Notes under the pieces: generated by a model
What the model saw: only the letters and a program-made list of their open reading frames with translations
Database searches by the model: none
Told to the model about the DNA's origin: nothing
DNA from: Gemmatimonadota bacterium
GTDB taxonomy: Bacteria; Latescibacterota; UBA2968; UBA8231
DNA length: 64,000 bases
Assembly (NCBI GenBank): GCA_038153405.1
Contig: JAYOYH010000012.1
Location: 32,001-96,000, forward strand
Direction of reading: 5' to 3'
Part shown: positions 37,456 to 64,000 of the stretch, in pieces
How positions within the stretch are numbered: position 1 is the stretch's first letter
How the letters are laid out: every line of letters begins with the position of its first letter
Translations under genes and position numbers: made by a program

Positions 37456-37460
37456 GGGAG

Positions 37461-45595: not shown

Positions 45596-45609
45596 GTGCT
45601 TTACCTCAT

Positions 45610-47629: not shown

Positions 47630-48483
47630 ACGGCTTTCCGCTGTTTGGGGTTGGCTAGCTCATCGAGACCGACGGCAATCAGCAACAGACCGACGAAAAT
47701 GAGCCCGATAAAGGCAATGGGAATAGCCCACCACCACCACATACCGCGAATCAGCGCGCTAAAGGTGATGGCCCAGTAAATCGTCATGCCGACCGTCGGG
47801 TCATTCTGCGGCCCCAGACCGAGGGCCTCTAAGCCGATGGACGAGAGAATGGCCCAGTTGACGGCGTTGGCAAACTGTGCCGCCAGATAGGGCAGTAGAT
47901 TGGGAAACAGCTCTTTCCAGATAATTTCGGCATTGCTCATGCCGTTGAGCTTGGCCATCTGCACGTAGGCGCGCTCGCGCATGCTCAGCACCTGAGAGCG
48001 AATGACGCGCGTTGGCCACATCCAAGCCAGCGAGGCAACGACTAGCGCCATGATATTGACGCTGATTTCCTCGCGGATCGTCGAGGCAATGGACACCAGC
48101 ACGACCAGTCCGGGCACGGTCAGCAGCGTATCGACCACGCCGCGCACGACCGTATCGAACTTGCCGCCGAGATAGCCGCTAGTAAAACCGAGAAAAATAC
48201 CCAACCCCAAACCGACTGCACCGGCCAGCAGGCCAATGCGCATGGTCAGCGGCACGCCAACGACCATGACGGAGAGCAAGTCGCGCCCTGAATCGTCCGT
48301 GCCAAAGGGATGATCCCATGAGGGCTCCAAGCGCGGCGTCGTCGACAGCGGCTGCGCCAGCGAGGTATCGACAAAGAGTGGACCGAGCAGGCCAAACAGC
48401 AAGATGATGGAGACCATGACAAAGCCAACCGCCAACATCGGGCTTTCGCGCAGATAGTAGAGAATCTGGTTGAACCGCTGCAT
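47626..48483 (-). CDS. ABC transporter permease (OppC/DppC-like)
   Basis: HPFGTDDSGRD, EAA-like loop and WWWWAIP motif. Confidence 0.92.
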   Translation of the reverse strand: MQRFNQILYYLRESPMLAVGFVMVSIILLFGLLGPLFVDTSLAQPLSTTPRLEPSWDHPFGTDDSGRDLLSVMVVGVPLTMRIGLLAGAVGLGLGIFLGFTSGYLGGKFDTVVRGVVDTLLTVPGLVVLVSIASTIREEISVNIMALVVASLAWMWPTRVIRSQVLSMRERAYVQMAKLNGMSNAEIIWKELFPNLLPYLAAQFANAVNWAILSSIGLEALGLGPQNDPTVGMTIYWAITFSALIRGMWWWWAIPIAFIGLIFVGLLLIAVGLDELANPKQRKAV

Positions 48484-48484
48484 A

Positions 48485-49495
48485 TCAGTTCTGCCTGCTA
48501 TGTGAGATCCGCGGATCGAGCAGCGGGTAGAGAAAGTCCATCAGCATCGTAACCACACCGATGGACATGATGAGAATGAGCACGACGCCGTTGATCACGG
48601 TGTAGTCGGATGACTGGATCGCCTGAAAGAGCACCGTGCCAATGCCGGGGTAGGCGAAGATCACCTCGACGATCACCTGGCCGGCCACGACGTTGGCCAA
48701 CGACAGGCCCAGCGCCGTAAACTGTGGCAGCATGGCGTTGCGCAGGCCGTAGCGAAAGAAGATGGTGCGGTTGCGCAGGCCATTGGCCTCGGCCAGCGTG
48801 ATATAGTCTTCACCCGACGTAGTAACCATCATGCCGCGCATGCCCAGCGCCCAGAATCCCACCGCCTGCAGCACGATGGCCAGCGCCGGCAGTATGGAGT
48901 GGTGCAGGACGTCTAAATAGAAATCGACGCTGGCAATGGCCAACATTCCCGGCGAATAGCCGCCCGACAGGGGGAACCACTGCATCTTGAGCCCCAGTAT
49001 GTAGAGCACAATCAGACCCAGCAGGTAGGGGGGAATCGCCGAAAGCGTCATAAAGGGAACGGCGAACCGGCGCACCCAGGGCGGCGCGTTGGGCCACGCC
49101 GAAAGCGCGCCCATCAGCGTGCCGAGGGCAAAGCCTATAAGCACGGAGATGAACATCAGGCCAAGCGTCCAGGGAATAGCATTGCCGATCATTTGACCCA
49201 CGCGCGCCGGATAGTTGGCCAGCGAGTAGCCCAAATCAAGAGTGAAAGTGTCGCCAAGAAAGTTCAGATACTGGATGTAGAGCGGCTTGTCGAGACCGAA
49301 TTTAGCCTGATAGGCCTTGACCATCGCCTCAATCCCATCCTGGCGCAGACCGCCGCTGGCGGCCAATTGTCCCAGCTTCTCGCGAATGGGATCGCGCCCC
49401 GTGCCTAGGCGAGGCACGAAGAAATTGACGCTGGCGGCAGCCCACACGACTACGAGAAAGAGAGCCACGCGTTTTACGACAAAGTTCCAGTTCAT
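48485..49495 (-). CDS. ABC transporter permease (OppB/DppB-like)
   Basis: FGLDKPLYIQY, DLGYS, DYITLAEANGL, EVIFAYPGIG and LDPRI motifs. Confidence 0.92.
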   Translation of the reverse strand: MNWNFVVKRVALFLVVVWAAASVNFFVPRLGTGRDPIREKLGQLAASGGLRQDGIEAMVKAYQAKFGLDKPLYIQYLNFLGDTFTLDLGYSLANYPARVGQMIGNAIPWTLGLMFISVLIGFALGTLMGALSAWPNAPPWVRRFAVPFMTLSAIPPYLLGLIVLYILGLKMQWFPLSGGYSPGMLAIASVDFYLDVLHHSILPALAIVLQAVGFWALGMRGMMVTTSGEDYITLAEANGLRNRTIFFRYGLRNAMLPQFTALGLSLANVVAGQVIVEVIFAYPGIGTVLFQAIQSSDYTVINGVVLILIMSIGVVTMLMDFLYPLLDPRISHSRQN

Positions 49496-49553: not shown

Positions 49554-49593
49554 AAGTTACCGTAGACGCGCTACCCTGTCAAATAAGTTTGAC
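49554..49593 (-). promoter_or_regulatory. Sigma70-type promoter of the ABC operon with a palindrome over the -35 box
   Basis: Minus strand TTGACA (49582-49577)-N17-TAACTT (49559-49554). Inverted repeat GTCAAA-TAAG-TTTGAC at 49578-49593. Confidence 0.6.
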
Positions 49594-51251
49594 TAGTTCT
49601 CGCCGCCTTCGCGCACGCGCAGCACAGAGCCGGCAGCGACTGAATACAGCGTGTCGCTAATACCGCTGGGCCACTGCACGCAGACCCATTCGGCCCGCTC
49701 GCTCTCCCCCAGGCCAAAGTACAGGCGCAGGGCGTTGGCGCCGAGGTAGCCCGAGCTGCCATTGACCGTGCGCACTTGTGCACGGTCGTCGACGCGCACC
49801 TCGACGCGCGCGCCCACGCCATGGCGGCTGCTTTGCACACCTACGAGATCAACGGCAATAGCGCCGTTTTTCGTCGCCGTATCGTTGCGCAGCAGCGTCG
49901 GCGCCTCGTCCAGATTGGTAACCAATAGGTCGACGTCGCCATCGCCGTCGTAATCGCCGCTAGCCGTGCCGCGGCTCACCGCTCTTATCGCCAAGCCCGG
50001 TCCGCCGTCCTCTTCTGAATAGACGCCTCCATCGTTGCGAAACAGCTGGTTGCGCTGGGCGTAACCGCCTCCCGTCGAGGCCTTCTCCACCTGCGGATAG
50101 ACGTGGCTATTGACGGCAAATAAATCGAGGTCGCCGTCGCTATCGGCATCAAAAAAGTGCGCTCCCCAGCCAAGGTACTCGACGCTGGGAGCACCAAGAC
50201 CGCTGCCCGATGTCGCATCGACAAAGCGCATTTGGCCATCATTGCGATAGAGCGTATTGGTCTCGCCGTAGAAATTTGTCACAAAGATATCGCCGTCGCC
50301 GTCGCCGTCGTAGTCGCCGACGTCGACGCCCATACCCGACTCCTCTTCGCCGTCGAGGTTAAAGGCGACGCCCGATAGCATGGCCACGTCGACAAAGGTG
50401 CCCCCGTCGTTGCGCCACAGCACGTTGGCGCGTTCGTCGTTGGCCACAAAGACATCCATATCGCCGTCGGCATCGAAGTCTTCGGGCACCACACCCAACC
50501 CGTAGTGATCGTTTGCCGCGGCGATGCCGACCTCGTCGGTGACGTCGGCAAACTGACCGACACCGTCGTTTCTGTAGAGGCGATCCTCGCCTCCAGGCAG
50601 GCCGACGGGCCCGCAAAAGACGCGCAGACCACCCAGGTAGACACAGGGATCCCACAGCTTCGGGTCTTCCAACAGCGGAGCGATATTGAAGGCCACGTAA
50701 TTGCTTACGTAGAGATCGAGATCGCCGTCGTTATCGTAGTCGAAAAAGGCCGCACTGGCGCTAAAGTCGTCGCCCTCTGCCCCCGATATGGTTTCGACAA
50801 AAGCGCCGCCGCCGTTGAGAAAGAGCGCGTTGGCACCATAGTTGGTCAGGTAGATATCGCGCAGGCCATCGCCGTCGACATCGCCGATGGCCACGCCAGC
50901 CCCCCAGCGCCGGTCGCCGAGTCCTGCGCGCTCCGTTTCTTCGACAAAATGCCCGCCGTCGTTGCGGTAGTAGGCGTTGCCCGGCCCGCGGTCATAGGCG
51001 GCAAAGGTAGAGCCGTTGACCAAGTAGAGATCTAAATCGCCGTCGTCGTCACCGTCGAAGAAGGCTGCGCCGCTGCCGTGCGCTTCGAGAATAAAACCCT
51101 TGTCTCTGCTCCCGCCGGTGTGGACAAAGTCGATGCCCGCCTGAGCGGTCTGGTCGCTAAAGGATATTTGAGCAACAGCCGGCGCTGCCAGCGCAATGAG
51201 CAGCGCGGCGGAGCGGATCAGGCGCGGCCCGGTGCGTTGCTCAGTGCGCAC
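49593..51251 (-). CDS. CRTAC1 family protein (FG-GAP/VCBS repeats + ASPIC/UnbV domain), secreted
   Basis: Signal peptide ending PAVA, seven DxDxDGDxD-type repeats, C-terminal GARVEV...YFGLG...VQWPSG. Confidence 0.88.
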   Translation of the reverse strand: MRTEQRTGPRLIRSAALLIALAAPAVAQISFSDQTAQAGIDFVHTGGSRDKGFILEAHGSGAAFFDGDDDGDLDLYLVNGSTFAAYDRGPGNAYYRNDGGHFVEETERAGLGDRRWGAGVAIGDVDGDGLRDIYLTNYGANALFLNGGGAFVETISGAEGDDFSASAAFFDYDNDGDLDLYVSNYVAFNIAPLLEDPKLWDPCVYLGGLRVFCGPVGLPGGEDRLYRNDGVGQFADVTDEVGIAAANDHYGLGVVPEDFDADGDMDVFVANDERANVLWRNDGGTFVDVAMLSGVAFNLDGEEESGMGVDVGDYDGDGDGDIFVTNFYGETNTLYRNDGQMRFVDATSGSGLGAPSVEYLGWGAHFFDADSDGDLDLFAVNSHVYPQVEKASTGGGYAQRNQLFRNDGGVYSEEDGGPGLAIRAVSRGTASGDYDGDGDVDLLVTNLDEAPTLLRNDTATKNGAIAVDLVGVQSSRHGVGARVEVRVDDRAQVRTVNGSSGYLGANALRLYFGLGESERAEWVCVQWPSGISDTLYSVAAGSVLRVREGGEN

Positions 51252-51957
51252 ATCGAAAGCCCAGCGTATTGCCCTTCACATAGGAGTGGGCATCTTTGGT
51301 ATTCGAGCGCTTGTCGCACTGTGCCAACGTATTGCCATTGACCCACGAACCGCCGCGCAGAAACTGCAGGTCGCCCTCCGACTGCGTCCACTCCCACACG
51401 TTACCCGCCATGTCCATGATGCCAAATGGACTGGCTCCTTTGGGAAAGGTGCCGACCGGCGCCGTGCGCACATAGCCATCGTGCTTGTGGCCGTATATAT
51501 TGGCGTAACCCTGTTCAAAAGTGCCTCCCCATGGATATTTCAATCCCTCTGGCCCCTCGCAGGCATAGCGCCACTCCTGCTGGGTCGGCAGGCGTTTGCC
51601 GGCCCACGCGCAGTAGGCGCGCGCGCCGTGCCAAGACACCTCCACCACCGGATGCGTGGCAAAACTGTCTTTGGCGGCAAAGACCCCATCCTTCTCCTCA
51701 ATCAGCGCAAAGCGGCTGCGCAATTCGACCCAGTAGGCGCCCTCTTCCTGCTGGTTGCCGCGTTCGTTGAGAAATTCGGCATACTCGGCATTGGTCACTT
51801 CGAACGTATCGAGGTGATAGGCGCTGCCGTCGCGATCGATGCGAACAGACGGGCCGCCTTTGAGCGAATCCGGCCGCGATGCGACGTCCTGCGCACCGAG
51901 CGCAATCGGCAGCAGCAGTGCGCAGCACGCTGCAATACAGTAGGCGTATCTATCCAT
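51241..51957 (-). CDS. FGE-sulfatase (SUMF1/PvdO-type) fold protein, secreted, probably non-catalytic
   Basis: EVTNAEY, HPVVEVSW, KRLPT, YPWG, DMAGNVWEW, RGGSW and GFRC motifs. Confidence 0.85.
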   Translation of the reverse strand: MDRYAYCIAACCALLLPIALGAQDVASRPDSLKGGPSVRIDRDGSAYHLDTFEVTNAEYAEFLNERGNQQEEGAYWVELRSRFALIEEKDGVFAAKDSFATHPVVEVSWHGARAYCAWAGKRLPTQQEWRYACEGPEGLKYPWGGTFEQGYANIYGHKHDGYVRTAPVGTFPKGASPFGIMDMAGNVWEWTQSEGDLQFLRGGSWVNGNTLAQCDKRSNTKDAHSYVKGNTLGFRCAH

Positions 51958-52813
51958 TGTATATGCCCTCTACGTAACGAGAAACAGTGGTGCTAAATCC
52001 TTCTTCTGCAAGCGACGGACCTACTTCAATATGCGTACCTGCGATCAGACGGCGCACTTCGGGCTTGGCATTGCCCATCAGCACACCCACCCCAGCCGCT
52101 TTGAGCATCGGCAAATCGTTGTCGCCGTCGCCTATAGCCAGCGTTTCGTCCAAGGCGGCACCCACCTCGCGCGCCAGCGCGCGCAGGGCGACGGATTTGT
52201 CGACGTGCGGCGGCATGACCTCTATCCGATCTGGAATCGACCAAGTCGCATAGAGGCGCTGCCCCCAGCGCGCGTTCATCGCCTCCATCACCGCAGTGCG
52301 CTGCTCTTCGCCGGTGACCATCATAATTTTGGGCGGCGCAGCGACCTCACCGGCCAAACAGCGCTCGTAGAGGGCCTCGTCGTGTATAAAGCCCGGCCCT
52401 CCGAACACTTCTAACCCCTCTACCGAGTGCGAGTGGCGGTACTCTTCGCGCAGACCGCCCTCTTCCTGCGCGCACAGGCAGCAAATCAGATTAAAATCGC
52501 CCGCTCGACTAAAGGCGACCAATTCGCTAAAAAGTTCCGCGTCGAGGCGCTCTTGGTGCAGCAAGCGGCGCCGCCCATCGCGTTCGGCGCTGACGGCAAC
52601 GCCGCCGTTATAGCCGCCCACGTAGAGGGCAGAGGCCACATGCGGCCAGTCGGCCAGTGGCTCCTGCGAACGGCGAATGCTGCGGCCGCTATTGCTGGCC
52701 ACCGCAATGCCCCGTTCGAGCAGCGACTCAATGGTTCGCAGCGACGCAGCCGATAGGTTGCTTTCCTCATCCAGTATAGTGCCGTCCATATCAAAGGCAA
52801 CTAGCTTAATCAT
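51950..52813 (-). CDS. Cof-type HAD-IIB hydrolase
   Basis: DMDGT, SGR, K and GDGDND motifs. Confidence 0.88.
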   Translation of the reverse strand: MIKLVAFDMDGTILDEESNLSAASLRTIESLLERGIAVASNSGRSIRRSQEPLADWPHVASALYVGGYNGGVAVSAERDGRRRLLHQERLDAELFSELVAFSRAGDFNLICCLCAQEEGGLREEYRHSHSVEGLEVFGGPGFIHDEALYERCLAGEVAAPPKIMMVTGEEQRTAVMEAMNARWGQRLYATWSIPDRIEVMPPHVDKSVALRALAREVGAALDETLAIGDGDNDLPMLKAAGVGVLMGNAKPEVRRLIAGTHIEVGPSLAEEGFSTTVSRYVEGIYNG

Positions 52814-54194
52814 GATCCTCCTGCCATTTTTGCTCTACGTCGCGCAGGCGCTGCTGCTCGCGTTCGTCGCCGCGCGCCAGTTCTATGTAGCGCTGCCACT
52901 CGGCGCGTGCGCGCTCCGGATAGGCGCGCTCGTAGGTGGCGGCCAAGTGGTAGCGCCACAGCGCGCGCTCCGGCTCTAGCTGCACCGATGCCTCGCCGGC
53001 GTCTAACGCCGCGCCCAGCACGCCTAATTGCCGATATACATCACCCAGCGATGCGTGCAGTTCCGCGTTGTTGGGATACTGTGCTACGCCATCGGAAAAA
53101 ACCTTTACCGCCGCGCGCAGACGCCCCCGGTGAACGTGGAGTCCCCCCAGTTTAAGAGCGGCATCCCCGCCGTCTTCGCCAATGGCCAGAGCCTGCTTAA
53201 ACGCATCCTCTGCCCCCTGCCAATCGCCGCGCTGGCTGTGCACGATGCCCATGCTAACCCATGCGCTTGCATCCTGCGGGCTCTGGGTGGCCAACTCGGC
53301 GTAAACCGCCAGCGCCTCATCGAGGCGCCCTGCGGCGCTATAAAGCAGCGCGGTATAGCGCTGGGCCAGCGGCAGGTCGGGGGCCAGTGCCCGGGCGCGC
53401 TCCATGTGTTCCAAGGCGCGCTGCGCGTCGCCATCCTCCCATAGAAAACGCCCCATTTCCTGGTGCAAAAGCGGCGAATCCGTCCGCCGCGCCAAGCCCT
53501 CGGCCAGCACGCCGCGACCTATTTGCGGCTGGCTCATTTCGCGGTGAAGCGACGCTAGCTCTATGCGTGCCACGACATCATCGGCATCGACTTCCAACGC
53601 CTTGGCATAGAGCACCAACGCCTCGTCGCGCTGCCCCAAGCGCGCTTCTACGCGTGCCAAATGTGTATGCACGTCGCGCATTTGTGCGTCGATTTGCAGC
53701 GCGGCGCGATAGGCCGCACGGGCCGACTGCAGGTGTTCATCCACGTGGCCCAGAGCCGCATAGGCATGTCCCAGACGAGCGTAGAGCCGCGCCGAACGCT
53801 CGCCGCGGCGCAGCGCGTCCTGATAGGCCCGCTGTGCGCCGCTGTAGCGGCCCTGCGCCGCCAGCGCAAAGCCCAAGCCTGCGTAGGCCGCGCCCATATC
53901 AGGATGTCGTTCGACGAGCTGGCGATAGAGCACCGTAGCCTCTTCGTATGCGCCCTGTGCCTCGTACAGGGCCGCCAAATTCAGCGCCGCATCGACCATG
54001 GTCGAATCGAGCGCCAGCGCCTGTTGCTCGGCGTATTGCGCCGTTGCTAGCACCTGTGGATCAAGCGTGCGCAACGCGCGCCCCCCCACGGTTTCCACCG
54101 CTTCGGCGTGCCAGGCCTGGGCATCTTTTTGCCCGCATCCATTGCAGAGGGCACAGCTCAACAGTGCGCAGAGCGCAGACGCCAGGTATTTCAT
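52806..54194 (-). CDS. TPR repeat lipoprotein
   Basis: Cys-containing signal (CNGC) followed by about ten TPR repeats. Confidence 0.82.
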   Translation of the reverse strand: MKYLASALCALLSCALCNGCGQKDAQAWHAEAVETVGGRALRTLDPQVLATAQYAEQQALALDSTMVDAALNLAALYEAQGAYEEATVLYRQLVERHPDMGAAYAGLGFALAAQGRYSGAQRAYQDALRRGERSARLYARLGHAYAALGHVDEHLQSARAAYRAALQIDAQMRDVHTHLARVEARLGQRDEALVLYAKALEVDADDVVARIELASLHREMSQPQIGRGVLAEGLARRTDSPLLHQEMGRFLWEDGDAQRALEHMERARALAPDLPLAQRYTALLYSAAGRLDEALAVYAELATQSPQDASAWVSMGIVHSQRGDWQGAEDAFKQALAIGEDGGDAALKLGGLHVHRGRLRAAVKVFSDGVAQYPNNAELHASLGDVYRQLGVLGAALDAGEASVQLEPERALWRYHLAATYERAYPERARAEWQRYIELARGDEREQQRLRDVEQKWQEDHD

Positions 54195-56320
54195 TGCACC
54201 GCCTCCAAGCGCGCCAGTCCCTCTACGACGCGCCAGCGACGGTCGACCGCCACATCGGCAAATACGTCCGTTATGCCGCTCGGCCAGCGCACGGCCACCT
54301 GCTCCGCGCGCGCGCAGTCGCCCAAGCCAAATTCGGCCTCCAGGCTATTGCTGTTGCCGAAGCTATAACCAGAGGCCACTTCGCGGATTTGCCTGCGCTC
54401 TCCGCACTGTACTTCAATGCGCGCACCTAGCCCATCGCGATTGCTCTGCCGACCTCGCAGCTGCACGACGAGCCAGTGGTTGCCAAAGCCGTCGTTGCGA
54501 TAAAGGGCATTGTGCCAATGGTCGCCGGGCTGCGCACCGCCGGAGGGCACGTAGAGGTCGACGTCGCCGTCGCCGTCGTAGTCGGCAAACGTCACGCCGT
54601 GCGACTTGCCGACGTGGCCGAGCCCAAGCGCTTCGGTAGCGTCGACAAACGTGCCGTCACCGAGGTTGCGATAGAGCACGTCGGGATCGCGGCGACTCAT
54701 CTGTGGACCGCCGTTGCCCAAGTACAGATCGACCCATCCGTCGTTGTCCACATCGGCCGACACGCCGCTCATTGTCCCTTCGGCACGCGCCATGCCGGCC
54801 GCCTCTGTTACGTCGGCAAACGCACCGTTGCCGAGGTTGCGGTAGAGGACCGGTCGGTCGCGCGCGCTCGTGCTGCGACCGGCCGCGCGATCGGCCAGCA
54901 CCCGATCAAACAGGCTCCAATTGCCGACAAAGAGGTCGAGCTGACCGTCGTTGTCGTAGTCGAGTGTAAACGTTATAAAGCCGTCAATATGTGCGGCAGC
55001 CGTGCCCGAAGATTCCGTAATATCGGCAAAGGCCCCGTCGCCCTCGTTGCGATACAGCGCATTGGGCTCGGTGAAATTGCATACGTAGAGATCGGCATCG
55101 CCGTCGCCGTCGAAATCGCCCCACGCCGCGCTCAGGCTCTGACCGCGGTGGTCCACACCCGCCGCACCGGCCACGTCGACAAAGGTGCCGTCACCGCGGT
55201 TGCGATAGAGCACATTGGTCGAATCGCCGGTGGCTCCCGTGCCGTTGGCCACGTAGATATCGACCCAACCATCGCCGTCGTAGTCGGCAAAGGCCGCGCA
55301 AAAGCCGGAGCCCGTATCGCCGACGCCGGCGCGCTCCGTCACATCGACAAAATGCCCATCGCCGTTGTTGGCAAACAGCACATTGGCACCACCGCCAAAC
55401 CAGCCATCGCGCGTTATATAAAGATCGGCATCGCCGTCGTTGTCGTAGTCGGCTACCTGCGTGCCAATGCCACCCGCTGGCAGTTCTAAGCCCGCTTCGC
55501 GCGTGTTCTCGGCAAAGCGCGCTCCATCGTTGCGGTAGTAGGCCAAGTCGGGATGGCCCAGCGCAACTAAGTCTAGATCGCCGTCGCCATCGAAATCGGC
55601 CCAGGCGCTCGAGCGCCCACCGTCGAGCTTGTCGACGCCCACTTCGACGCCCACTTCGCGGAATCGGCCCGCCAGCGCGTGGGCCGGAGAGTCGGCCTGT
55701 GGAAAGCGATAGGTCTCAGGGATATCGGCACTGCCAGCGCCCAGCGCCCGATGCACTTCGCGCAGGCTCCACCTGAGCGCTAGTGCATCGGGATGCCGCT
55801 CGATGGCCCGGCGCAGCAGCGAATCGGCGCGCGCGTATTCCCCCTGCCAAATAGCGGTTACCGATGCCTGGTAGAGCGGCTCGTAGCCGGTTGGGTCGAC
55901 CGCCAACGCACGCGCAAAATATGCCTTCGCCTGCGCGTAACGTCCCTCCTCGAGCGCCTCGCGACCGCGGCCCAAAAACGTCTCGAGAATCAGCGCGCGC
56001 GCGGCCGTTAGCTGCGCGTTCAGCGCCAGTGCACGCTGCAGCTGTTCTACCCCATCGTCGATGCGCCCCTGTAACAGGCGCAGGCGCCCCAGCTGCCAGT
56101 GCCCTTCATAGGCATCTGGCGACAGCGCCACGCAGCGGCTGAAGGCGCGTTCAGCCTCCAGTAGACGATGGCGTTCAAGCAGATCCAGGCCCGTTCGATA
56201 GGCGTCCAAGAAATCCGCCGAGCGCGCGGGCACACGCGGATCGTTGCCAGCGCACGAGGCGATGCACAGCACCGCACAAAGACCGTTTAACAGACGAGAT
56301 ATAGCAGGATTTCTTAGCAC
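54191..56320 (-). CDS. TPR + FG-GAP/ASPIC-UnbV (CRTAC1-like) fusion lipoprotein
   Basis: Lipobox IASC, N-terminal TPRs, repeated ADYDxDGDxD, C-terminal SNRDGLGARIEV...FGLG...VRWPSG. Confidence 0.87.
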   Translation of the reverse strand: MLRNPAISRLLNGLCAVLCIASCAGNDPRVPARSADFLDAYRTGLDLLERHRLLEAERAFSRCVALSPDAYEGHWQLGRLRLLQGRIDDGVEQLQRALALNAQLTAARALILETFLGRGREALEEGRYAQAKAYFARALAVDPTGYEPLYQASVTAIWQGEYARADSLLRRAIERHPDALALRWSLREVHRALGAGSADIPETYRFPQADSPAHALAGRFREVGVEVGVDKLDGGRSSAWADFDGDGDLDLVALGHPDLAYYRNDGARFAENTREAGLELPAGGIGTQVADYDNDGDADLYITRDGWFGGGANVLFANNGDGHFVDVTERAGVGDTGSGFCAAFADYDGDGWVDIYVANGTGATGDSTNVLYRNRGDGTFVDVAGAAGVDHRGQSLSAAWGDFDGDGDADLYVCNFTEPNALYRNEGDGAFADITESSGTAAAHIDGFITFTLDYDNDGQLDLFVGNWSLFDRVLADRAAGRSTSARDRPVLYRNLGNGAFADVTEAAGMARAEGTMSGVSADVDNDGWVDLYLGNGGPQMSRRDPDVLYRNLGDGTFVDATEALGLGHVGKSHGVTFADYDGDGDVDLYVPSGGAQPGDHWHNALYRNDGFGNHWLVVQLRGRQSNRDGLGARIEVQCGERRQIREVASGYSFGNSNSLEAEFGLGDCARAEQVAVRWPSGITDVFADVAVDRRWRVVEGLARLEAVQ

Positions 56321-56388
56321 GTCGAGAAGTGAGCTGACCTGAAGTTTTGCGCAATATCGCGCAGCGCTGGAACAACATCAACTTCTCT

Positions 56389-56417
56389 TTGCCATTTGTC
56401 AACGTTTCTAGTAAATT
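56389..56417 (+). promoter_or_regulatory. Candidate sigma70 promoter in the divergent gap
   Basis: TTGCCA-N17-TAAATT about 40 nt before ATG 56458. An opposite-strand TTGACA (56397-56402) lies in the spacer. Confidence 0.45.
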
Positions 56418-56457
56418 GCAGCCCGTCTCCAATCGCTCACCTGCAAAGGAGTTTCCA

Positions 56458-57576
56458 ATGCGCATCGCCCTCATGGTTGCCGCTATGCTCTGCACTACAG
56501 CCCTATCCGCTTCAGAAAACCGCCCCACGCTCAGCATGGGAGGCAAAGCCGCCCAGCTCGTCATCGACTTGGGCGGCGGTTCTATCGCCGACTTCCACCT
56601 CGGCCAAGATGGACTCAACCCGCTGCAGTGGGACTCGTGGGACTTCAGTGACGATCCCTCTGCCGAGCCACCGCTCGAACCCCGCTCCATGGGACACTTT
56701 CTCTGCCTCGATCGCTGGGGACCGGCCACGGAAACCGAAACCGAGATGGGCATGGGGTGGCACGGCGAAGCGTCGCGCAGTTGGTGGAGCGTGCGCCAAG
56801 CGCCGACGCACGGTGAGGGCAGCACCCAGGCGCAAATGGCCGCAGTGCTGCCGCTGGCCGGACTCGAAGTGCTGCGCACCGTTCGCCTACACGACGATCA
56901 GGCCATTTTCACTGTCAGCGAGGCGGTGACCAATACGCGCCACATTGGGCGCATCTACAACATCGTCCAGCATCCGACCATCGGCCCGCCCTTTCTCGAC
57001 GAGAGCACCGTCGTGGATGCCAACGGCACGCGCGGCTTTATGCAGGAGACGCCGGCGCCCAACTTTGAAACGCCAGAAGTGCGCTGGCCCAACGCCTTGC
57101 AAAAGGACGGCACCGAAGTCAACCTGCGCCATCTTACGGACGACGCGGCGCCCGGTGTGGTATCCTATATCATCGAAGAAGAATACGGCTGGGTGACGGC
57201 GATCAATGCCTCCAAAGAATTGCTTATCGGCTATATTTGGCCCAGCGCCGACTATCCGTGGTTTGACGCCTGGCGCCACGTGGCCGACGGCAAACCCTTT
57301 GCACGCGGACTCGAATTCGGTACGACGGGCCTGCACCAGCCCGGTCCCGTGCTGGTAGAAAAGGGCAAGATCTTTGACCGCCACCTGTTCCGCTTTATCG
57401 ATGCCGGCGAAACACAGACATTCTCCTACGCTAACTTCCTCATGGAAATTCCGCAGGATTTTAACGGCGTAGAAAGCGTGGCCTACAACGGCAGCGAAAT
57501 TGTCGTGAGCGAGCGCGGCGGCAAGGGACGCGCGCTGAAAATGCAGGTGGGAACGCTCTTCGCAGCGGCCGAGTAG
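56458..57576 (+). CDS. Secreted galactose-mutarotase/aldose-epimerase-like fold protein
   Basis: AAGGAG RBS, signal peptide ending ALSA, beta-rich sequence with WHGEAS, QHPTIG and GLEFG resembling aldose-epimerase HG/H/E motifs. Confidence 0.55.
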   Translation: MRIALMVAAMLCTTALSASENRPTLSMGGKAAQLVIDLGGGSIADFHLGQDGLNPLQWDSWDFSDDPSAEPPLEPRSMGHFLCLDRWGPATETETEMGMGWHGEASRSWWSVRQAPTHGEGSTQAQMAAVLPLAGLEVLRTVRLHDDQAIFTVSEAVTNTRHIGRIYNIVQHPTIGPPFLDESTVVDANGTRGFMQETPAPNFETPEVRWPNALQKDGTEVNLRHLTDDAAPGVVSYIIEEEYGWVTAINASKELLIGYIWPSADYPWFDAWRHVADGKPFARGLEFGTTGLHQPGPVLVEKGKIFDRHLFRFIDAGETQTFSYANFLMEIPQDFNGVESVAYNGSEIVVSERGGKGRALKMQVGTLFAAAE

Positions 57577-57642
57577 CATCGCTTTGCCAGCGATGCCGCA
57601 TAGCGCAAGACGCGGGCGCCGCATCCCAACGCGGCGCCCGCG
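57576..57642. other. Two adjacent GC-rich hairpins after the stop codon
   Basis: GCATCGCT-TTGCC-AGCGATGC (57576-57596) and a perfect 12-bp stem CGCGGGCGCCGC-ATCCCAAC-GCGGCGCCCGCG (57611-57642). No U-tract. Confidence 0.5.
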
Positions 57643-57660
57643 ACGGCGCATTCATCTGCC

Positions 57661-57806
57661 GGCTACGGCACGCGCACTAGGCGGTCAGTCTGCCTTTGTC
57701 GTGGCGCGCAACGAGGCGCGGGGGTCGTGCATCGTGGAACGGCGGTGATTTTCGCGGCATCAACTGGATGCAGCGCCGTCCGCACGTCTACGAGGCCTAT
57801 CTTAGA
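57661..57806 (+). pseudogene. Possible remnant of a carbon-nitrogen hydrolase (nitrilase family) C-terminus
   Basis: One frame reads ARALGGQSAFVVARNEARGSCIVERR, and an overlapping frame reads FRGINWMQRRPHVYEAYL. No start codon. Confidence 0.3.
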
Positions 57807-57844
57807 CGCGGCCAATCGCGCTTCGCTGTGATAGGAAAGCGAGC

Positions 57845-58321
57845 CTAATACACCCCATCTTCAAAGCGTAGCTTGCCCTGCGAAGCACGGGTAAAATACG
57901 CCTCTACCGTCTGGCGCGTGCGCGGAAACAGCCGGCGCAGCTCGTCGACGACGGCCTGTACGTTGGCCTCATCCTCTCCCATATCGAGCAATAGGCGCGC
58001 ATAGAGAAAGAGCAGCTGCTGGTTGTGGCGATCGGCTTCCAGCGCCTTTTCAAGATGGGCGCGCGCCGCTTTGAGCTGGCCCTTTTCAGCCAGTGCCGTG
58101 CCCATCAGCAAGTTGGGCTGCGCGCCCTCCGGATAGAGCGTCAGCAGAACGCGCGCCACCTCTTCGAGCGACTCGCCCTTGAGAGTCGGATGGCCGCGCG
58201 CGTGCGTGCGATCGGCAAGGTGTTCGTACTCGGCTGCGCGCTGGCGCTCTACATAAGCCAAGACCGCGCCTATAGCCATGATGATGAACAGGAGTTTAAA
58301 GGGGCGTAAATAGCGCATCAT
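57845..58321 (-). CDS. Small membrane-anchored TPR protein
   Basis: N-terminal TM helix and one to two TPR-like repeats (LLMGTALAEKGQLKAARAHLEKAL). Confidence 0.7.
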   Translation of the reverse strand: MMRYLRPFKLLFIIMAIGAVLAYVERQRAAEYEHLADRTHARGHPTLKGESLEEVARVLLTLYPEGAQPNLLMGTALAEKGQLKAARAHLEKALEADRHNQQLLFLYARLLLDMGEDEANVQAVVDELRRLFPRTRQTVEAYFTRASQGKLRFEDGVY

Positions 58322-58345
58322 TCACCATGCGTGCACACCGACGAA

Positions 58346-59398
58346 TCACAGACCTTCCTGCACGTCCTTTTTGCGCACTTTCCAGATAAAGGCGTCGTAG
58401 TAGTAGTGAATGAGGGCAAACGAACTGAGCAGCGAATAGCTGAACAGGTCGAAGTTGGTGTTAAATCCGACGATGCCGAAGCCGAAATCGCGCACGTGCC
58501 CCTCGCTCAAGGCGTGGAACACCAGCGCATAGGCGGCGCACATCAGCAGAAAGGCCTTTACGTTGCCCGGCTTGGCCAAATAGTTGATGATCGTCGAATC
58601 GGCCACGCCGCGCTCGACCTTGTGCCGGTTGTAGTAGTAGACCATGACGATATACTGGACGCCGTGCATAATGCGATGGGCCACGGCGTAGACGAGCAGG
58701 TACTCCGTCGTAAAGCTGGTGAAATACCAGAGAAAGTAGCTGACGCCGAGAAAGGCGTATTTGAGCGGATTGAGCGCGTAGCCTTGGCGCAGGGTCCAGG
58801 CGATATGACCCAGCCAAACAAGGCCGTAAACGATGGTAATGGCCCAGGATATTTGGTGCACGGTCTGCACGCCGGCCGCGCCTATCGGCACGTGCCATTC
58901 GTGCAGCATGCGCACCCACAGGGTCGAAAACAGCGGCGACACCACCAGCATATTGACGAAAAATATCCAAGAAAAGCCCAAGTCGAACTTTGCCGTGGAT
59001 GGCGCACCGGTTTTGGCCTTGAAGTCATAGACTCGCGCAAAGCCATACTGCTGCATGAGACTGTGTTGATGGTCCCACAGCGTAACGATGAGGACCAGGC
59101 TGAGCGGCGCGTAGTGCAGCAGCACATAGCAGAAGCCGATCAACAGCACCGGCCCCCAGATAAAGCGCTCCTTAAAACGGGTAAACTCGCTAGGCGAACC
59201 GTAGACGCGCAGCCAAGTCACAAAGTGATGCGGCACCGTGACCCACAGCGCAATGGCCGCCAGCGCCGCGCCGGGCAGGTACTGTCCAGAAATAAAGGCA
59301 AACGCCAGCGCCGCCAGCGGCAGCCCGAGAAACCACACGCAGTCCTGGCGGCGATCGACGATATAACCAGAGCGAAATAAATTCACGGGCTGTGACAT
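58346..59398 (-). CDS. Polytopic membrane protein with His-rich motifs, function unknown
   Basis: About eight hydrophobic segments. Motifs PHHFVT, WDHQH...QYG, HRIMHGVQY and HYYYDAFIW. GGAG RBS. Confidence 0.75.
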   Translation of the reverse strand: MSQPVNLFRSGYIVDRRQDCVWFLGLPLAALAFAFISGQYLPGAALAAIALWVTVPHHFVTWLRVYGSPSEFTRFKERFIWGPVLLIGFCYVLLHYAPLSLVLIVTLWDHQHSLMQQYGFARVYDFKAKTGAPSTAKFDLGFSWIFFVNMLVVSPLFSTLWVRMLHEWHVPIGAAGVQTVHQISWAITIVYGLVWLGHIAWTLRQGYALNPLKYAFLGVSYFLWYFTSFTTEYLLVYAVAHRIMHGVQYIVMVYYYNRHKVERGVADSTIINYLAKPGNVKAFLLMCAAYALVFHALSEGHVRDFGFGIVGFNTNFDLFSYSLLSSFALIHYYYDAFIWKVRKKDVQEGL

Positions 59399-59432
59399 AA
59401 ACTCATATCTCCAAGAAGGGCGTAGCCACTGC

Positions 59433-61061
59433 TCAAGAGGGCTGCTGCGATAGCCGCTGCAGTTGCTCTTGGTTTACTGAGATTTCCACGGCGCGCCGCT
59501 TGCGCAGCTCCTCGGCAAACTCCTTGAGGATCTTCTGCGACTGGTCTTCTCGCCAATCGGCCTCGACCTGCTCGCGCACTTCTTCCAGGGGTGGATAGTG
59601 CGCTGCGCGCCGCGCCGTAATCCGCACCACGATGTAGCCATTATCGGTGGCAAAGGGTCCGTGCACCGTGCCCTCGTCTGCGCGCAGCGCGCGGCTAACG
59701 GGGTTGTCGCCCTGCCAGGCGCCGCTTCCGTAGATCAGGTGCACAAAGCGATCATCGGCGATCGACTCGCCGGCGCGCAGGCGCTCGACGATGCGTCGTC
59801 CCTCTTCTACATCATCGGTTAGCAATCGATCTACTTCGACCTTTTCCGGCACTTCATAGCGCACCTTTTGCTCCTCAAAAAACAGGCGTAGCGCATTGAC
59901 ATTGGGCTCGGGTGCCTGCGCGAGCAGCTGCTCCTTAAGGCGGCGCACTACGTATTGACGACGCGCCGTTTCAGCCCCGGCGGCGACTTCTGGATCGTTA
60001 ACCAGATCCAGCCGTACTACTTCGAGCGAAGCCAGCACCTGCCGGGCAAATTCGCGCCGCAGCGCCAGCGCAAATGCCGCGGTATCGATCGCCGCGATAC
60101 CGCGCATCATTTCCACGGCGCGCTCCAATGACAGCGAGCCGCCCTCGTAGGATACGACCTCCACTGCAGGATTGGCTGGTGCTGTATTGTCGCCCAGCGC
60201 TTTCAGCAGAGCCGCGACACCGCCTTCGCTATAGCGCACGCTGTAGCGCGCGTGCAGCGAATCGTAATAGGCCAATAGCTGGTGACCTACACCTTCGCGC
60301 GTCACCAGTTTTTCCACCGTTTCACGCTCTTGCTCAAAGCTAACTGGGTGCACGTCCGTGAGCTTGATAATGAAGTATCCATCGGCTACCTTGAGCGGTC
60401 CGGCCAGCTGACCCACCTGCATATCAAATGCCTTTTCGGTGAGCGCTGCATAGGCCGGCATGGTCTCTCCCCAGCGATGGTAGCCCATATCGGCATTGCG
60501 CTCGAGAATGCGCGGGTCCTGCGAGTGGCGCTGCGAAAGCTCTTCGAAATCGGCGCCCTGACGCAGCTGAGATAGCAGCGGCGCGACGGCCGTAGAATCG
60601 CGCACCATCAGCAGGCTAAAGCGCACCTTGCGACTGTAGGGACTGCGGGCAAAATAGGCGCGCAGCGAATCTTCGGAGGGCGTGCGCGGACCGACGCCAA
60701 CGCGCGCATAGAGCAGTCGCTGCAGCAGGCCAATGCGCTCGCGCTCGACGGCAGTCTGAACCTGTGGACTCCGATGCAGACCACGCGCCTCGGCTTCCTG
60801 TACCAGCAGCTCTTCTTCGATGAGGGCATCGACGTAGCGACTCGGCTCCATCTCATCGCGCATGGGCTCGGGTATGCGCTGCAAATAGCGCTGATAGCGC
60901 GCCGTCCCTATTTCGACGGAGCCGACTTTGGCGAGCGCCGTGCTTTTCGCTTCGGTGACGAGCTCTTTCTCGTCCGCTATGTCCGGCCCGCCGCAGGCGG
61001 CCAGCACCGATGCGGCCGTCGCCCATAGCGCACTTCTAATGATCGTGCTGCGCGTGATCAA
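59433..61061 (-). CDS. PpiC/parvulin-type peptidyl-prolyl isomerase / chaperone lipoprotein (PrsA/SurA-like, duplicated architecture)
   Basis: Lipobox LAAC, GADFEELSQRHSQD...DMGY, GPLKVADGYFIIKL and second GPFATDNGYIVVRI. Confidence 0.8.
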   Translation of the reverse strand: MITRSTIIRSALWATAASVLAACGGPDIADEKELVTEAKSTALAKVGSVEIGTARYQRYLQRIPEPMRDEMEPSRYVDALIEEELLVQEAEARGLHRSPQVQTAVERERIGLLQRLLYARVGVGPRTPSEDSLRAYFARSPYSRKVRFSLLMVRDSTAVAPLLSQLRQGADFEELSQRHSQDPRILERNADMGYHRWGETMPAYAALTEKAFDMQVGQLAGPLKVADGYFIIKLTDVHPVSFEQERETVEKLVTREGVGHQLLAYYDSLHARYSVRYSEGGVAALLKALGDNTAPANPAVEVVSYEGGSLSLERAVEMMRGIAAIDTAAFALALRREFARQVLASLEVVRLDLVNDPEVAAGAETARRQYVVRRLKEQLLAQAPEPNVNALRLFFEEQKVRYEVPEKVEVDRLLTDDVEEGRRIVERLRAGESIADDRFVHLIYGSGAWQGDNPVSRALRADEGTVHGPFATDNGYIVVRITARRAAHYPPLEEVREQVEADWREDQSQKILKEFAEELRKRRAVEISVNQEQLQRLSQQPS

Positions 61062-62433
61062 CCAGCCCCTCCTGCTTTTCCTTTAGTATCTGTAATTGGC
61101 GCTTGCTGTCCTCCACACGCCCTGTCTTCAGGTAGGAAACGGCCAATTTCTGGCGCGCATCCAAAAAATCGCCATCGCCCTCTACTGCGCGCTCCAACAC
61201 CTCGGCCGCCTGCGCAAAATCGCCGTCGCGCGCATGGAGCAAACCCATGTAGTAGTTGGCGTAGACATCGTCGGGTTTGCGCTTGAGCGCTTCGACAAAG
61301 TGCGTGCGCGCTTCGGCAAATCGCTGCGCGCGCAGGTGCGCCTGCCCCATGTTGTAATAGGCCTCAGCGTATTCGGGATCTATGGCCAGCGCCCTCTCAT
61401 AGGCTGCAATCGCCTCGGCATACTGGCCCAGGCGCAGCTGCATATTGCCCAAGTTATTCTGGTAACTCAGGCTGTCGGGCGCGAGGCGCGTGGCAAGCGT
61501 GTAGGCCTCGGCTGCTTCGGCATAGCGCCCTTGGCGCGCGTAGAGCAGGCCGAGCATAGCGCGCGCTTCGTGGTCATCGGGGTCGTTGCCCAGCATGCGC
61601 AACTGGTCTTCAATCTTGTCCAGCTGCGCATCGAGAGCGCTAAACTGGTCGAGCACCTGGCGACTCTCCTCGCCGCGGCCGAGGCGGCGCAGCGCATTGG
61701 CCAGCACGAAGTACGCCTCTTTTTCTAGCGGCGCCAGCGCAATGCTGCGCCGGCTGGCGCGCTCGGCCGCTTCGTAGTCGCGCAGCTTGACGTCGACCTG
61801 CGCCAGATCGACGTAGGTGGCCGCATCGGTGCTGTCCAATGCAATGGACTGCTCGAGCGACGCGCGCGCCTCGGCAAACTGCAGCTCTTTGGCATGCATG
61901 CGACCGAGCAGGCGATAAAAAGAGGCGTTGCCGGGATCGCGTCGCTGTCCTTCGGCCACCAGTTCGCGCACGCGCTCGTATTCTCCGCGCAGAAAGTGGA
62001 TATAGCCCAGATCGTAGTAGGTCGTTATATGACCTGGATCGAGGCGCAAAACCGTCTCGTGCTCTACAATGGCCTGCGCATAGTTGAGCTGGCGCACGTA
62101 CATCGCCGCCAGATTGTGCCGCGCCGACACGTGCGCAGAGTCGAGCCCCAGCACGCGCACATAGGACTCTATCGCCTCCGGGTAGTTGAGCTGGCGAGCA
62201 TAGGCATTGGCCAAGTTGTAGTGCACCTTAACGTAATTGGGCGCCAGCTGCCGAGCCTCTTTGTAGGCATCGATCGCCTCGGTGTGCCGACCCTGTGCGG
62301 CCAGTGCCACGCCGCGATCAAAGTGCAGCTCAGCGTCGATGATCGATCCCGGAACGGCCGTCTCAACGGTCGTTTGCGGCGACGGCTGATCGGCACAGGC
62401 CAGCAGTAGAGCGCAGAGGAAGAGCGCTTTCAC
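61036..62433 (-). CDS. TPR repeat lipoprotein
   Basis: Lipobox LLAC and about eleven canonical TPRs (HYNLANAY, YQNNLGNM, AYYNMGQ). Confidence 0.88.
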   Translation of the reverse strand: MKALFLCALLLACADQPSPQTTVETAVPGSIIDAELHFDRGVALAAQGRHTEAIDAYKEARQLAPNYVKVHYNLANAYARQLNYPEAIESYVRVLGLDSAHVSARHNLAAMYVRQLNYAQAIVEHETVLRLDPGHITTYYDLGYIHFLRGEYERVRELVAEGQRRDPGNASFYRLLGRMHAKELQFAEARASLEQSIALDSTDAATYVDLAQVDVKLRDYEAAERASRRSIALAPLEKEAYFVLANALRRLGRGEESRQVLDQFSALDAQLDKIEDQLRMLGNDPDDHEARAMLGLLYARQGRYAEAAEAYTLATRLAPDSLSYQNNLGNMQLRLGQYAEAIAAYERALAIDPEYAEAYYNMGQAHLRAQRFAEARTHFVEALKRKPDDVYANYYMGLLHARDGDFAQAAEVLERAVEGDGDFLDARQKLAVSYLKTGRVEDSKRQLQILKEKQEGLVDHAQHDH

Positions 62434-64000
62434 AGCCCGCTTCCTTCGCGCAAAATTAGCGTGCGATCCGCTGCCACATCGACCACTTCATCGACGCGAC
62501 CCGAGGGCCAGTAGACGACAATCTTGTCGACGCGCTGGGCCGAACCCAACCCGACGTGCAGGCGTATATCGCTCTGTGAGAGAAAGCTCGCTCCCGACCG
62601 GACCTCGTCCGTTTGAATCGAGCCACCGGCATGCACCTCGACGCGCGCGCCCAGCGCCGCGCGATTGCTCTGTGCGCCGCGCAGCTGCAGATGCAACCAG
62701 TGCGCACCGATAGCACTATCGTTGCGCATGAGCGTAGGACCATCGCCGACATTGGCCACCAGCACGTCGATATCGCCGTCTTCATCGTAGTCGCCAAAGG
62801 CCGCACCGCGGCTAACTTTGCGCACTGCCAGCGCATCTTCCTCACTCGTCGGCTGCAACTCCTCGAAGCGCCCAGCACCGACGTTGGCAAAGAGCTGGTT
62901 GCGCTGAGCAAAGGTGGTGTTTTCGTAGGATTCCACGTCGCTTTCAAGGTGGCCATTGGCAATAAATACGTCGCGGTCGCCGTCGTTGTCGTAGTCAAAA
63001 AAGCGCGTTCCCCACGACAGATAGGGAATGCTGCCCTTGCCCAGTCCAGCCAGGAATGTTTCGTCGACAAAGGTGCCATCGCCCAAGTTCTTGTAGAGCG
63101 TATTGGTCTCCCACTGGAAGTTGGTCACGAAGAGATCGGGATAGCCATCGTTATCGTAATCGCCCATATCGACGCCCATGCCCGCCTCGACATCGCCGTC
63201 TTCGTTATAAGCCGTGCCGGCCAGTAGGCCCACCTCCTCGAACAGTCCGCGACCGTCGTTGAGAAAGAGAAAGTTAAGCGTCTTGTCGTTGGCCAAGTAC
63301 AGATCGGAATCGCCGTCCAGGTCGACATCGCCGAATACCACGCCCAGTTCCTTGCCGTCGTCGCTGTACAAGCCGGCCTGTCGAGTGACGTCGGCGAAGG
63401 TGCCATCGCCGCCGTTCTTGTAGAGCACGTCGGATACCCCGTCAAAGGCCTCGGGACCACAGTAGAGCTGCAGACCGCTGCCGCCCTCGGCGCACACGCG
63501 GTGGTTGTCGTAGGAAAAGTCGTGGTAGTTGGCTACGTAGAGATCGACGTAGCCGTCGCGATCGACGTCGGAAAAGGCGCAGCTCGTCGCCCAGCGCTCG
63601 TCGCCGACCCCAGCGGCCTTCGTCACATCGACAAACGAGCCGTTGCCCTCATTGCGATAGAGCGCATTGGCGCCAAAATTGCCCAGGTACAGGTCGAGAT
63701 CGCCGTCGTTGTCGTAATCGCCCACGGCCATGCCCATGCCATAGCCCTCGTCGCCAACTCCAGCCGCCTCCGTCACGTCGACAAATGCGCCGCTGCCCGC
63801 ATTGCGGTAAAGCGCGTTGCGCGGTGGCGTATCGAAGTGCACACCCGGCGTCGCCGCGCCGTTGATCAGGTAGATATCTAGCGATCCGTCGCCATCGTAG
63901 TCGAAAAAGCCGGCACCTGCTCCCACTGTTTCGATGACGAATTTTTTGCCACTCGCTCCGTTGACGTGGCGAAACTCAATGCCCGCCGACGCCGTCACAT
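62430..64000 (-). CDS. CRTAC1 family protein (FG-GAP + ASPIC/UnbV), 5' end outside the window
   Basis: Repeated DYDxDGxxD motifs and SNRAALGARVEV...LSQSDIRLHVGLG...YWPSG. The frame is open to the window edge. Confidence 0.88.
   Translation of the reverse strand, partial: VTASAGIEFRHVNGASGKKFVIETVGAGAGFFDYDGDGSLDIYLINGAATPGVHFDTPPRNALYRNAGSGAFVDVTEAAGVGDEGYGMGMAVGDYDNDGDLDLYLGNFGANALYRNEGNGSFVDVTKAAGVGDERWATSCAFSDVDRDGYVDLYVANYHDFSYDNHRVCAEGGSGLQLYCGPEAFDGVSDVLYKNGGDGTFADVTRQAGLYSDDGKELGVVFGDVDLDGDSDLYLANDKTLNFLFLNDGRGLFEEVGLLAGTAYNEDGDVEAGMGVDMGDYDNDGYPDLFVTNFQWETNTLYKNLGDGTFVDETFLAGLGKGSIPYLSWGTRFFDYDNDGDRDVFIANGHLESDVESYENTTFAQRNQLFANVGAGRFEELQPTSEEDALAVRKVSRGAAFGDYDEDGDIDVLVANVGDGPTLMRNDSAIGAHWLHLQLRGAQSNRAALGARVEVHAGGSIQTDEVRSGASFLSQSDIRLHVGLGSAQRVDKIVVYWPSGRVDEVVDVAADRTLILREGSGL

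Follow-up and report, generated by a model that had tools for sequence, protein, structure and literature searches.

A CRTAC1-like propeller and its predicted TPR lipoprotein partner in a candidate capture-and-import cassette of Latescibacterota

We analyzed a 64,000-nucleotide stretch of Latescibacterota DNA (the window; positions 32,001 to 96,000 of contig JAYOYH010000012.1, assembly GCA_038153405.1) whose minus strand carries, at 49593..64000, a cluster of ten genes built around CRTAC1/ASPIC-UnbV proteins. An earlier note, made from the letters alone, had described these ten genes, and open reading frames and Pfam matches confirm their presence, domains and order. We propose, with a probability of about 0.45, that the cluster is the periplasmic arm of a repeated envelope cassette with which Latescibacterota capture and import solutes, probably glycans or glycopeptides. 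The core of this proposal is the pairing of a CRTAC1-like propeller with a tetratricopeptide repeat (TPR) lipoprotein; the two are predicted to form a complex, and we consider it likely that they are physical partners.

Three of the genes pass the Pfam cut-off for both FG-GAP_3 and UnbV_ASPIC: 49593-51251 (CRT_A), 54191-56320, which begins with TPRs, and 62430-64076 (CRT_B), which extends 76 bases beyond the window end. By domain content, CRT genes (our shorthand for CRTAC1-like genes) belong to the CRTAC1/ASPIC-UnbV family. Like this shorthand, the labels CRT_A, CRT_B, type I and type II were coined in the present analysis. The source genome, G000, is 93% complete. Among its 3,919 genes (our own gene calls), profiles find 24 CRT genes, and the genome contains 23 ASPIC domains. 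No internal stop interrupts any of these 23 matches, and the three CRT genes of the window are whole open frames, so that a reading with selenocysteine does not apply to them. Fourteen paralogues, C-terminal-TPR fusions included, share an AY[NS]xxG-type loop (type I), while five lack it and carry an N-terminal helical or TPR extension (type II).

The 465-residue TPR lipoprotein encoded beside CRT_B belongs to a subfamily that keeps company with propellers: of its ten best relatives within the genome, nine are fusions with a CRT or have one no more than two genes away. When CRT_B was folded with residues 28-458 of this lipoprotein, the predicted complex had an ipSAE (interaction prediction score from aligned errors) of 0.63 (0.63, 0.60 and 0.70 over the runs), compared with 0.00 for the best of three controls. 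The mark we applied to this score is reached in 116 of 157 solved complexes and in 2 of 215 mismatched pairs. Agreement between the runs covers at least 73% of contacts. The partner has a pLDDT (predicted local distance difference test) of at least 89, and the CRT chain, with its conserved DxDxDG motifs, one of 88. The prediction therefore supports CRT-TPR binding, and the physical partnership that the earlier note had suspected gains from both the fusion-sharing subfamily and the modeled complex.

In the predicted complex, the interface is formed by the type I loop (CRT residues 258-268), CRT residues 315-325 and an insert helix of the TPR protein. Across 33 orthologues, interface columns are more conserved than the remaining columns on both sides (0.89 versus 0.74 in CRT; 0.85 versus 0.66 in TPR). 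F264 of the TPR protein and G268 of CRT are invariant in all 45 rows of the complex alignment.

Type I paralogues also share a further set of residues. In these proteins, 44-52% identical to CRT_B, E23, Y158, D238, M274, H350 and Q365 are kept in 14 of 14 paralogues, and Y363 and R397 in 13. In the geometry of integrin propellers, the repeat register would place the conserved polar residues on the side facing away from the Ca loops. This pattern suggests that type I CRTs have a pocket for a ligand or for catalysis. Searches by sequence turned up just one solved relative of CRT_B, the single-chain structure 9ETN (phmmer E 3.8e-15).

The association of these genes extends well beyond the window. 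We fetched 79 loci with the alignment of the His-rich membrane protein encoded in the cluster; 48 were classed, by their titles and identity, as Latescibacterota-like, and 41 remained after 7 with too little upstream DNA were dropped. The exact order CRT, TPR lipoprotein, parvulin, His-rich membrane protein occurs in 31 of these 41 related loci, which include kin and are not independent. Within G000, 17 of the 24 CRT genes have a TPR gene within three genes. Conversely, 13 of 45 TPR genes (0.95 expected) and 6 of 15 parvulin genes (0.32 expected) lie within three genes of a CRTAC1 gene; these and the other G000 enrichment counts assume that clustered genes are independent, which inflates the effect. 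The partners thus accompany CRTAC1 genes elsewhere, in other G000 clusters as well as in related genomes. Same-genus genomes keep the locus order up to their contig limits (the G005 contig stops at the His gene) and have the ABC importer behind CRT_A. In G017, the locus genes stay together after a rearrangement, with the HAD gene missing. Among the 45 Latescibacterota-like loci that span at least 11 kb, HAD was seen in 10 and the FGE-fold gene in 11, and the 10-kb flank sets a limit to these counts. In G017 (L043:9445-11485), one copy of CRTAC1 and the gene like spermidine synthase are present as fragments only, through decay or assembly error.

Other CRT clusters in G000 adjoin arrays of 600-1,100-residue proteins that combine F5/8 or NedA-like domains with FlgD-Ig/CHU_C tails. 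We refer to these proteins, whose domains are CBM32/NedA-like, as cargo. Beside the clusters lies an unnamed family of ~870-residue predicted barrels with 23 paralogues, 7 of which are within six genes of a CRT (0.83 expected). No Pfam or NCBIfam family matches it. Its AlphaFold2 model (pLDDT 77) is almost wholly beta, with 23 strands of at least 9 residues, and its best Foldseek matches are SlpA and MtrB at low TM-scores. Genes for proteins with a C-terminal domain (CTD) tail ending in '-xY' track the barrel, 30 of 49 lying within five genes of one compared with 4 of 54 other CTD genes. DUF6785 genes lie within three genes of a cassette gene in 7 of 21 cases (1.18 expected).

The contig that holds our locus (C12) stops inside the next cassette gene. 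The relatives G007 and G017 show what comes after the locus there: cargo genes, a barrel, a parvulin, a lipoprotein, an M28-FtsX protein and DUF6785, followed in G007 by a BKACE gene. Orthologues of these continuation genes sit at the broken end of another G000 contig, C60, whose truncated barrel is 83% and 74% identical to the G007 and G017 barrels. G000 repeats this combination in at least six separate cassettes, and the same gene mix is found in another family (G032, G038). The earlier note had offered adhesion or substrate capture as possible roles. Taken as the arm of a barrel, cargo and importer cassette, the cluster sits in a context that favors substrate capture over adhesion as its putative role.

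The features of the locus are as follows.

62430..64000 (gene end 64076), minus strand: CRT_B, type I CRTAC1-like propeller with ASPIC/UnbV (Pfam; 9ETN match; predicted complex); its signal peptide lies just past the window end, and its predicted partner is the adjoining TPR lipoprotein
61036..62433, minus strand: TPR lipoprotein, 465 aa, of the CRTAC1-associated TPR subfamily with insert helix (Pfam; lipobox-like signal; complex prediction)
59433..61061, minus strand: double-parvulin (PrsA/SurA/PpiD-like) lipoprotein lacking the catalytic His, a likely holdase chaperone (Pfam; alignments)
58346..59398, minus strand: unnamed all-helical His-rich membrane protein with four conserved His plus Asp/Gln, the split form of a membrane-TPR fusion
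57845..58321, minus strand: N-terminally anchored TPR protein, the detached TPR half of the His-membrane family (Pfam)
57611..57642, no strand: 12-bp perfect inverted repeat between convergent genes, a possible terminator (sequence)
56458..57576, plus strand: exported DUF4432-like protein (weak match, under the Pfam cut-off), kept at the locus in relatives
54191..56320, minus strand: type II lipoprotein fusion of TPR, FG-GAP propeller and ASPIC/UnbV, with a PorE-like domain order lacking OmpA_C (Pfam)
52806..54194, minus strand: TPR lipoprotein, 462 aa (Pfam; lipobox-like signal)
51950..52813, minus strand: Cof-like HAD-IIB phosphatase, no signal peptide, accessory (Pfam; profile scores)
51241..51957, minus strand: exported FGE-sulfatase-fold protein lacking the catalytic Cys pair (Pfam; alignments)
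49593..51251, minus strand: CRT_A, type I CRTAC1-like propeller with ASPIC/UnbV, signal peptide I (Pfam)
43847..49495, minus strand: family-5 ABC importer (two permeases, two ATPases, solute-binding protein), 97 bp downstream of CRT_A

The earlier picture of two co-oriented operons with every junction overlapping fits the second run, from 54191-56320 to CRT_A, where the junctions are -4, -8, -8 and -11 bp. It does not hold for the first run, from CRT_B to the anchored TPR gene, where overlaps of -4 and -26 bp give way to gaps of +34 and +24 bp. The two runs are moreover divided by the opposite-strand DUF4432-like gene and the 12-bp inverted repeat, at which slot the relatives G001, G004 and G006 have an extra gene. 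Outside the window, the first run opens with genes for a CRTAC1-TPR fusion of ~1,060 aa and for a membrane protein that is spermidine-synthase-like. Neither the latter nor the DUF4432-like protein matched anything in PDB sequence searches. Lipobox-like signals are visible by inspection in the TPR and parvulin proteins, in keeping with the lipoprotein nature claimed for them before. A promoter and terminator scan was at chance level (7 versus 4.1 and 8 versus 13.1). Six RNA runs contained small shares of the stretch; four of them, all made up of contigs, were compared with the locus and set aside: their near-identical pieces are scattered and 150-460 nt long, two of them across the 62430 junction, and demonstrate neither transcription nor co-transcription.

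Several neighboring features deserve mention in their own right. A second barrel cassette occupies 142-7228 of the window (minus strand), with CTD cargo, a 906-residue barrel paralogue and a cargo gene whose tail is over the TIGR04131 cut-off. Two GT-C-like membrane proteins, one weakly arabinofuranosyltransferase-like and the other a PMT_2 protein with TPRs, are encoded at 34039-39290 (minus strand), downstream of both an enolase-family gene and the ABC importer. Paralogous family-5 solute-binding lipoproteins lie at 40505-42346 and 43847-45613 (minus strand), with a murA-like gene between them. At L005:786-7139, a 2,117-residue FtsX-DUF6785-DUF6784 fusion adjoins two CRTAC1 genes; its split form, an M28-FtsX gene and a DUF6785 gene, comes after the barrel in G007 and G017.

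The earlier note had equipped the cluster with its own foldase and modifying enzymes, and here the gene products tell a different story. The double parvulin aligns to PrsA, SurA and PpiD structures, and its catalytic His positions hold Leu and Phe in all 38 orthologues. With both His replaced, it is more likely a holdase than a foldase. In the FGE-fold protein, RGGSW is not followed by the catalytic Cys pair, its best PDB match is the non-catalytic SUMF2, and it falls under the profile cut-offs of SenA, GldK, EgtB and PvdO; a modifying activity thus finds no support. The HAD protein has intact DxDGT and GDxxND motifs and scores over the HAD-IIB cut-off, with 123 of the 137 bits needed for the Cof subfamily. 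It has no signal peptide and is dispensable at the locus, as its absence from the G017 locus illustrates, and a modifying role for it finds no support either. The cassette includes, at L001:9680-12288 (minus strand), another FGE-fold gene without the Cys and a CTD-tailed di-haem protein of MauG/MbnH-like type.

The His-rich membrane protein (58346-59398) contains 15 His and has no Pfam match; among 72 family members none is matched consistently. Its model is all-helical (pLDDT 85). Foldseek returned no match at E<=0.001, and the best hit in a fold comparison (VIA) had Z 6.8 with a root-mean-square deviation of 4.8 over 174 aligned residues. We set its matches to rhodopsin (Z < 7) aside as generic helical bundles. 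In the ESM Atlas it falls among unnamed clusters at 0.95-0.97, the best named one scoring 0.77. The named intramembrane His-metalloenzyme families that we set against it were desaturase, BCD and CREST. The family comprises 1,464 clusters at 50% identity. Among the best 150 distant members, 107 of the 108 long ones have C-terminal TPRs, and H57, H112, H245, H331, D335, Q116 and Q248 are kept in 106-108 of the 108. These C-terminal TPRs mark our His gene and the anchored TPR gene behind it as a split fusion. Candidates of 759-2165 aa included no longer fused form, which is weak evidence; a further search found His-membrane-TPR fusions of 500-820 aa. From its conserved residues, the four-His protein is probably an intramembrane metalloprotein.

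The gene behind the His-rich gene varies elsewhere. In one Latescibacterota clade (L068:11054-12910; L071-L088, L139), the anchored TPR is replaced by an FAD-linked oxidase, which may resemble alkyl-DHAP synthase, often with an SDR-like gene. In some Planctomycetota (L110:11114-12460, L127:11086-12471), its place is taken by a membrane-anchored WD40 propeller.

Given the observed gene content, order, conservation and linkage, and the predictions of the CRT-TPR complex and of the barrel fold, we infer the following sequence of functional steps. CBM32-like proteins ending in '-AY' would exit through a translocon like that used in type IX secretion (the T9SS) and be held on their cognate barrel, while the His-less parvulin lipoprotein would act in the periplasm as a chaperone of barrel or cargo. 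Lipid-anchored TPRs are predicted to clamp the propellers, which would likely dock under the outer-membrane barrel by analogy with PorE under PorP. The TPR superhelix is predicted to grip the propeller rim beside the conserved polar pocket, as positioned from the repeat register, and this pocket would bind or process the incoming solute. Judging from gene neighborhood, DUF6785/FtsX-M28 or ABC family-5 importers would take the solute through the inner membrane and deliver it to HAD, enolase-family and BKACE enzymes. Optional envelope modifiers recruited through TPRs may be the role of the four-His protein and of the spermidine-synthase-like one. A more ambitious generalization, somewhat doubtful as a whole, would make bacterial CRTAC1/ASPIC-UnbV proteins one half of a periplasmic heterodimer, the half that has the pocket and is clamped by a TPR protein. 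The Latescibacterota form of this heterodimer would relay solutes between a giant, undescribed barrel of the outer membrane with T9SS-secreted lectins and DUF6785 importers, as a TonB-independent Sus counterpart alongside which stands a new four-His intramembrane metalloenzyme family.

Several observations weigh against the capture-and-import proposal. The complex was folded from our own alignments, in which 11 of the 45 rows are fused halves that may have supplied the contact signal. In these 11 fused CRT halves, interface columns are less conserved than the rest (0.24 versus 0.49); either pairing is specific to each paralogue, or this may argue against an interface common to all. No window protein contains OmpA_C, and all six matches in the genome are on contigs that carry no CRT gene. 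DUF6785 genes are hardly enriched beside CRT itself (1 of 21 within three genes, 0.53 expected), the ABC importer is absent behind the locus in G017, and we found no catalytic or ligand assignment for the cargo. Distribution is a further difficulty. ASPIC occurs in 60 of 61 genomes of the phylum and the barrel in 30; six barrel-less genomes of one genus still have SprA. Type I CRTs are present in 4-14 copies in each of four genomes of the Planctomycetota, a phylum that is not known to have a T9SS. In the Planctomycetota search, 13 of 33 matches lie in frames of at least 885 aa, and in G078 a TPR match follows within 1 kb downstream for 2 of 4 type I CRT genes. Docking under this barrel therefore cannot be the universal role of the family. 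Since genomes in which we found no barrel also have CRT genes, the role of these genes goes beyond the barrel cassette, and the CRT-TPR unit is older and wider than it.

Much of the same evidence could be read as display or assembly without any solute relay, with the CRT-TPR pair acting as a PorE- or BamB/BamD-like scaffold that helps to fold, anchor or position the barrel and its '-AY' cargo, which would be adhesins. We include a dedicated BAM-like assembly role under this heading. The order of TPR, propeller and beta-sandwich in the lipoprotein 54191-56320 is that of PorE minus OmpA_C, '-AY' tails track the barrel, a His-less parvulin belongs to the cassette, and F. johnsoniae is known to have five PorE/PorP/cargo operons (PMC12618676). 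Yet importers and catabolic genes flank the cassette, and polar residues that never vary point to a site for a ligand or for catalysis more than to a plain scaffold. CRT also persists beside DUF6785 in genomes that gave no barrel; in one of these, G029, DUF6785 is no more than 12 kb away from 8 of the 10 ASPIC domains (rotation test P 0.004). We therefore regard a purely structural role as rather unlikely.

The TPR-bearing membrane enzymes invite a different reading, in which CRT is the enzyme or substrate-presenting subunit of a platform that modifies secreted proteins, lipids or glycans together with four-His, spermidine-synthase-like, GT-C and SGNH proteins. The near-invariant four His and the C-terminal TPRs of the distant His-protein homologues suit this idea, as do the spermidine-synthase-like gene at 29 of 45 loci, GT-C-TPR and SGNH-TPR genes in other cassettes, and the invariance of the pocket residues. 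UnbV also occurs in enediyne biosynthetic clusters, a subject on which our literature search gave nothing relevant. We nevertheless judge it rather improbable: the membrane enzyme changes from cassette to cassette, only 3 of 17 Planctomycetota His-protein loci of at least 11 kb contain a CRT gene, and the FGE-fold and parvulin proteins look catalytically dead. Finally, the CRT-TPR pair may be the sole functional unit and everything else a set of expanded envelope paralogues co-located in accessory islands. The 24 CRT, ~100 CTD and 21 DUF6785 genes of G000 are indeed all clustered, our enrichment counts treat such genes as independent, and relatives differ in the HAD gene, the additional inserted gene and the ABC importer. 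Such co-location seems very unlikely to be the whole explanation, since the combination recurs across cassettes and in another family and survives rearrangement in G017, and closeness to a barrel sharply divides '-xY' tails from the others.

Latescibacterota, Planctomycetota, Acidobacteriota and Poribacteria all have expanded sets of ASPIC/UnbV proteins, and a vertebrate homologue exists. With a predicted partner, named interface residues, a candidate pocket and a link to a cassette, the function of the family becomes testable with two purified proteins. Should the uptake reading be true, it would account for polymer uptake in a phylum that is abundant, uncultured and poor in TonB-dependent receptors, and it would extend the logic of type B cargo, barrel and PorE beyond Bacteroidota. 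The present analysis contributes the residue-level predicted TPR-propeller interface, the PorE-like parallel and the unnamed four-His membrane family.

In the literature searched, which left most subscription papers and supplements outside, we found no description of a CRTAC1-TPR complex or of the cassette, no ASPIC/UnbV partner or activity, and no paper on DUF6785. Three papers record ASPIC/UnbV paralogues or domain layouts with no function attached in the passages concerned (PMC3174227, PMC3909097, PMC10477339), and another predicts algal polysaccharide use for the phylum (PMC4454575). Bacterial CRTs share with vertebrate CRTAC1 (PDB 9ETN) an FG-GAP propeller (PF13517) followed by UnbV_ASPIC (PF07593) and differ from it in having no EGF domain. 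The type I proteins add the AY[NS]xxG loop, the predicted TPR dock, and the conserved polar pocket, whereas type II proteins have the N-terminal helical or TPR extension instead of the loop. The parvulin protein shares with PrsA, SurA and PpiD a lipoprotein character, a helical N-domain and parvulin domains; it differs in that the His of domain 1 are Leu and Phe, domain 2 is degenerate, and each cassette has one paralogue.

Bacteroidota Sus loci combine SusC/SusD with surface glycan-binding proteins. Our cassettes resemble such polysaccharide utilization loci in being repeated units of barrel, lectin-like surface proteins, inner-membrane transporters and catabolic enzymes, a likeness that appears to be one of logic only. 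Among the cassette genes scanned, no SusC/SusD Pfam match was found (the TonB-dependent barrel PF00593 matches outside cassettes), no glycoside hydrolase was identified at the locus, and the surface proteins, unlike those of Sus, have T9SS-type tails.

The closest parallel in layout is with T9SS type B cargo-PorP/SprF-PorE operons, such as PG1035-PorP-PorE of P. gingivalis and Fjoh_3952-3951-3950 of F. johnsoniae. SprA, PorU and a PorV/PorQ-family gene score over their cut-offs in G000. TIGR04131 (type B CTD) has 25 matches there, 2 of them over the cut-off, and the tails match weakly; 6 of 18 cassette cargo proteins match type B CTD at E<=0.001, equal to the number matching type A. Searches of G000 for PorP/SprF (PF11751; 0 matches) and GldM/PorM (no match) are uninformative, as the controls were silent and, for the latter, the genome is 93% complete. 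According to three papers, PorE is a lipoprotein with TPR, propeller, carboxypeptidase regulatory domain (CRD) and OmpA_C whose propeller likely binds PorP (PMC9143113, PMC12773672, PMC12618676), and OmpA_C is essential to it (PMC12773672). The cassette barrel is ~870 aa and belongs to no named family, compared with the 14-stranded SprF; the cassette propeller is FG-GAP, that of PorE WD40; and in the cassette, TPR and propeller are often separate genes with importers and membrane enzymes attached, unlike in PorE operons. With no OmpA_C, another propeller family and a much larger barrel, the cluster is not a member of the PorE system. The ASPIC/UnbV domain presumably has a transthyretin-like fold. 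In 54191-56320, it occupies the position of PorE's CRD-like beta-sandwich, after a lipobox-like motif, TPRs at 41-182 and FG-GAP repeats, which is the order of a PorE-type lipoprotein. The two arrangements thus have in common a CTD-tagged cargo gene beside an outer-membrane barrel and a periplasmic TPR-propeller lipoprotein.

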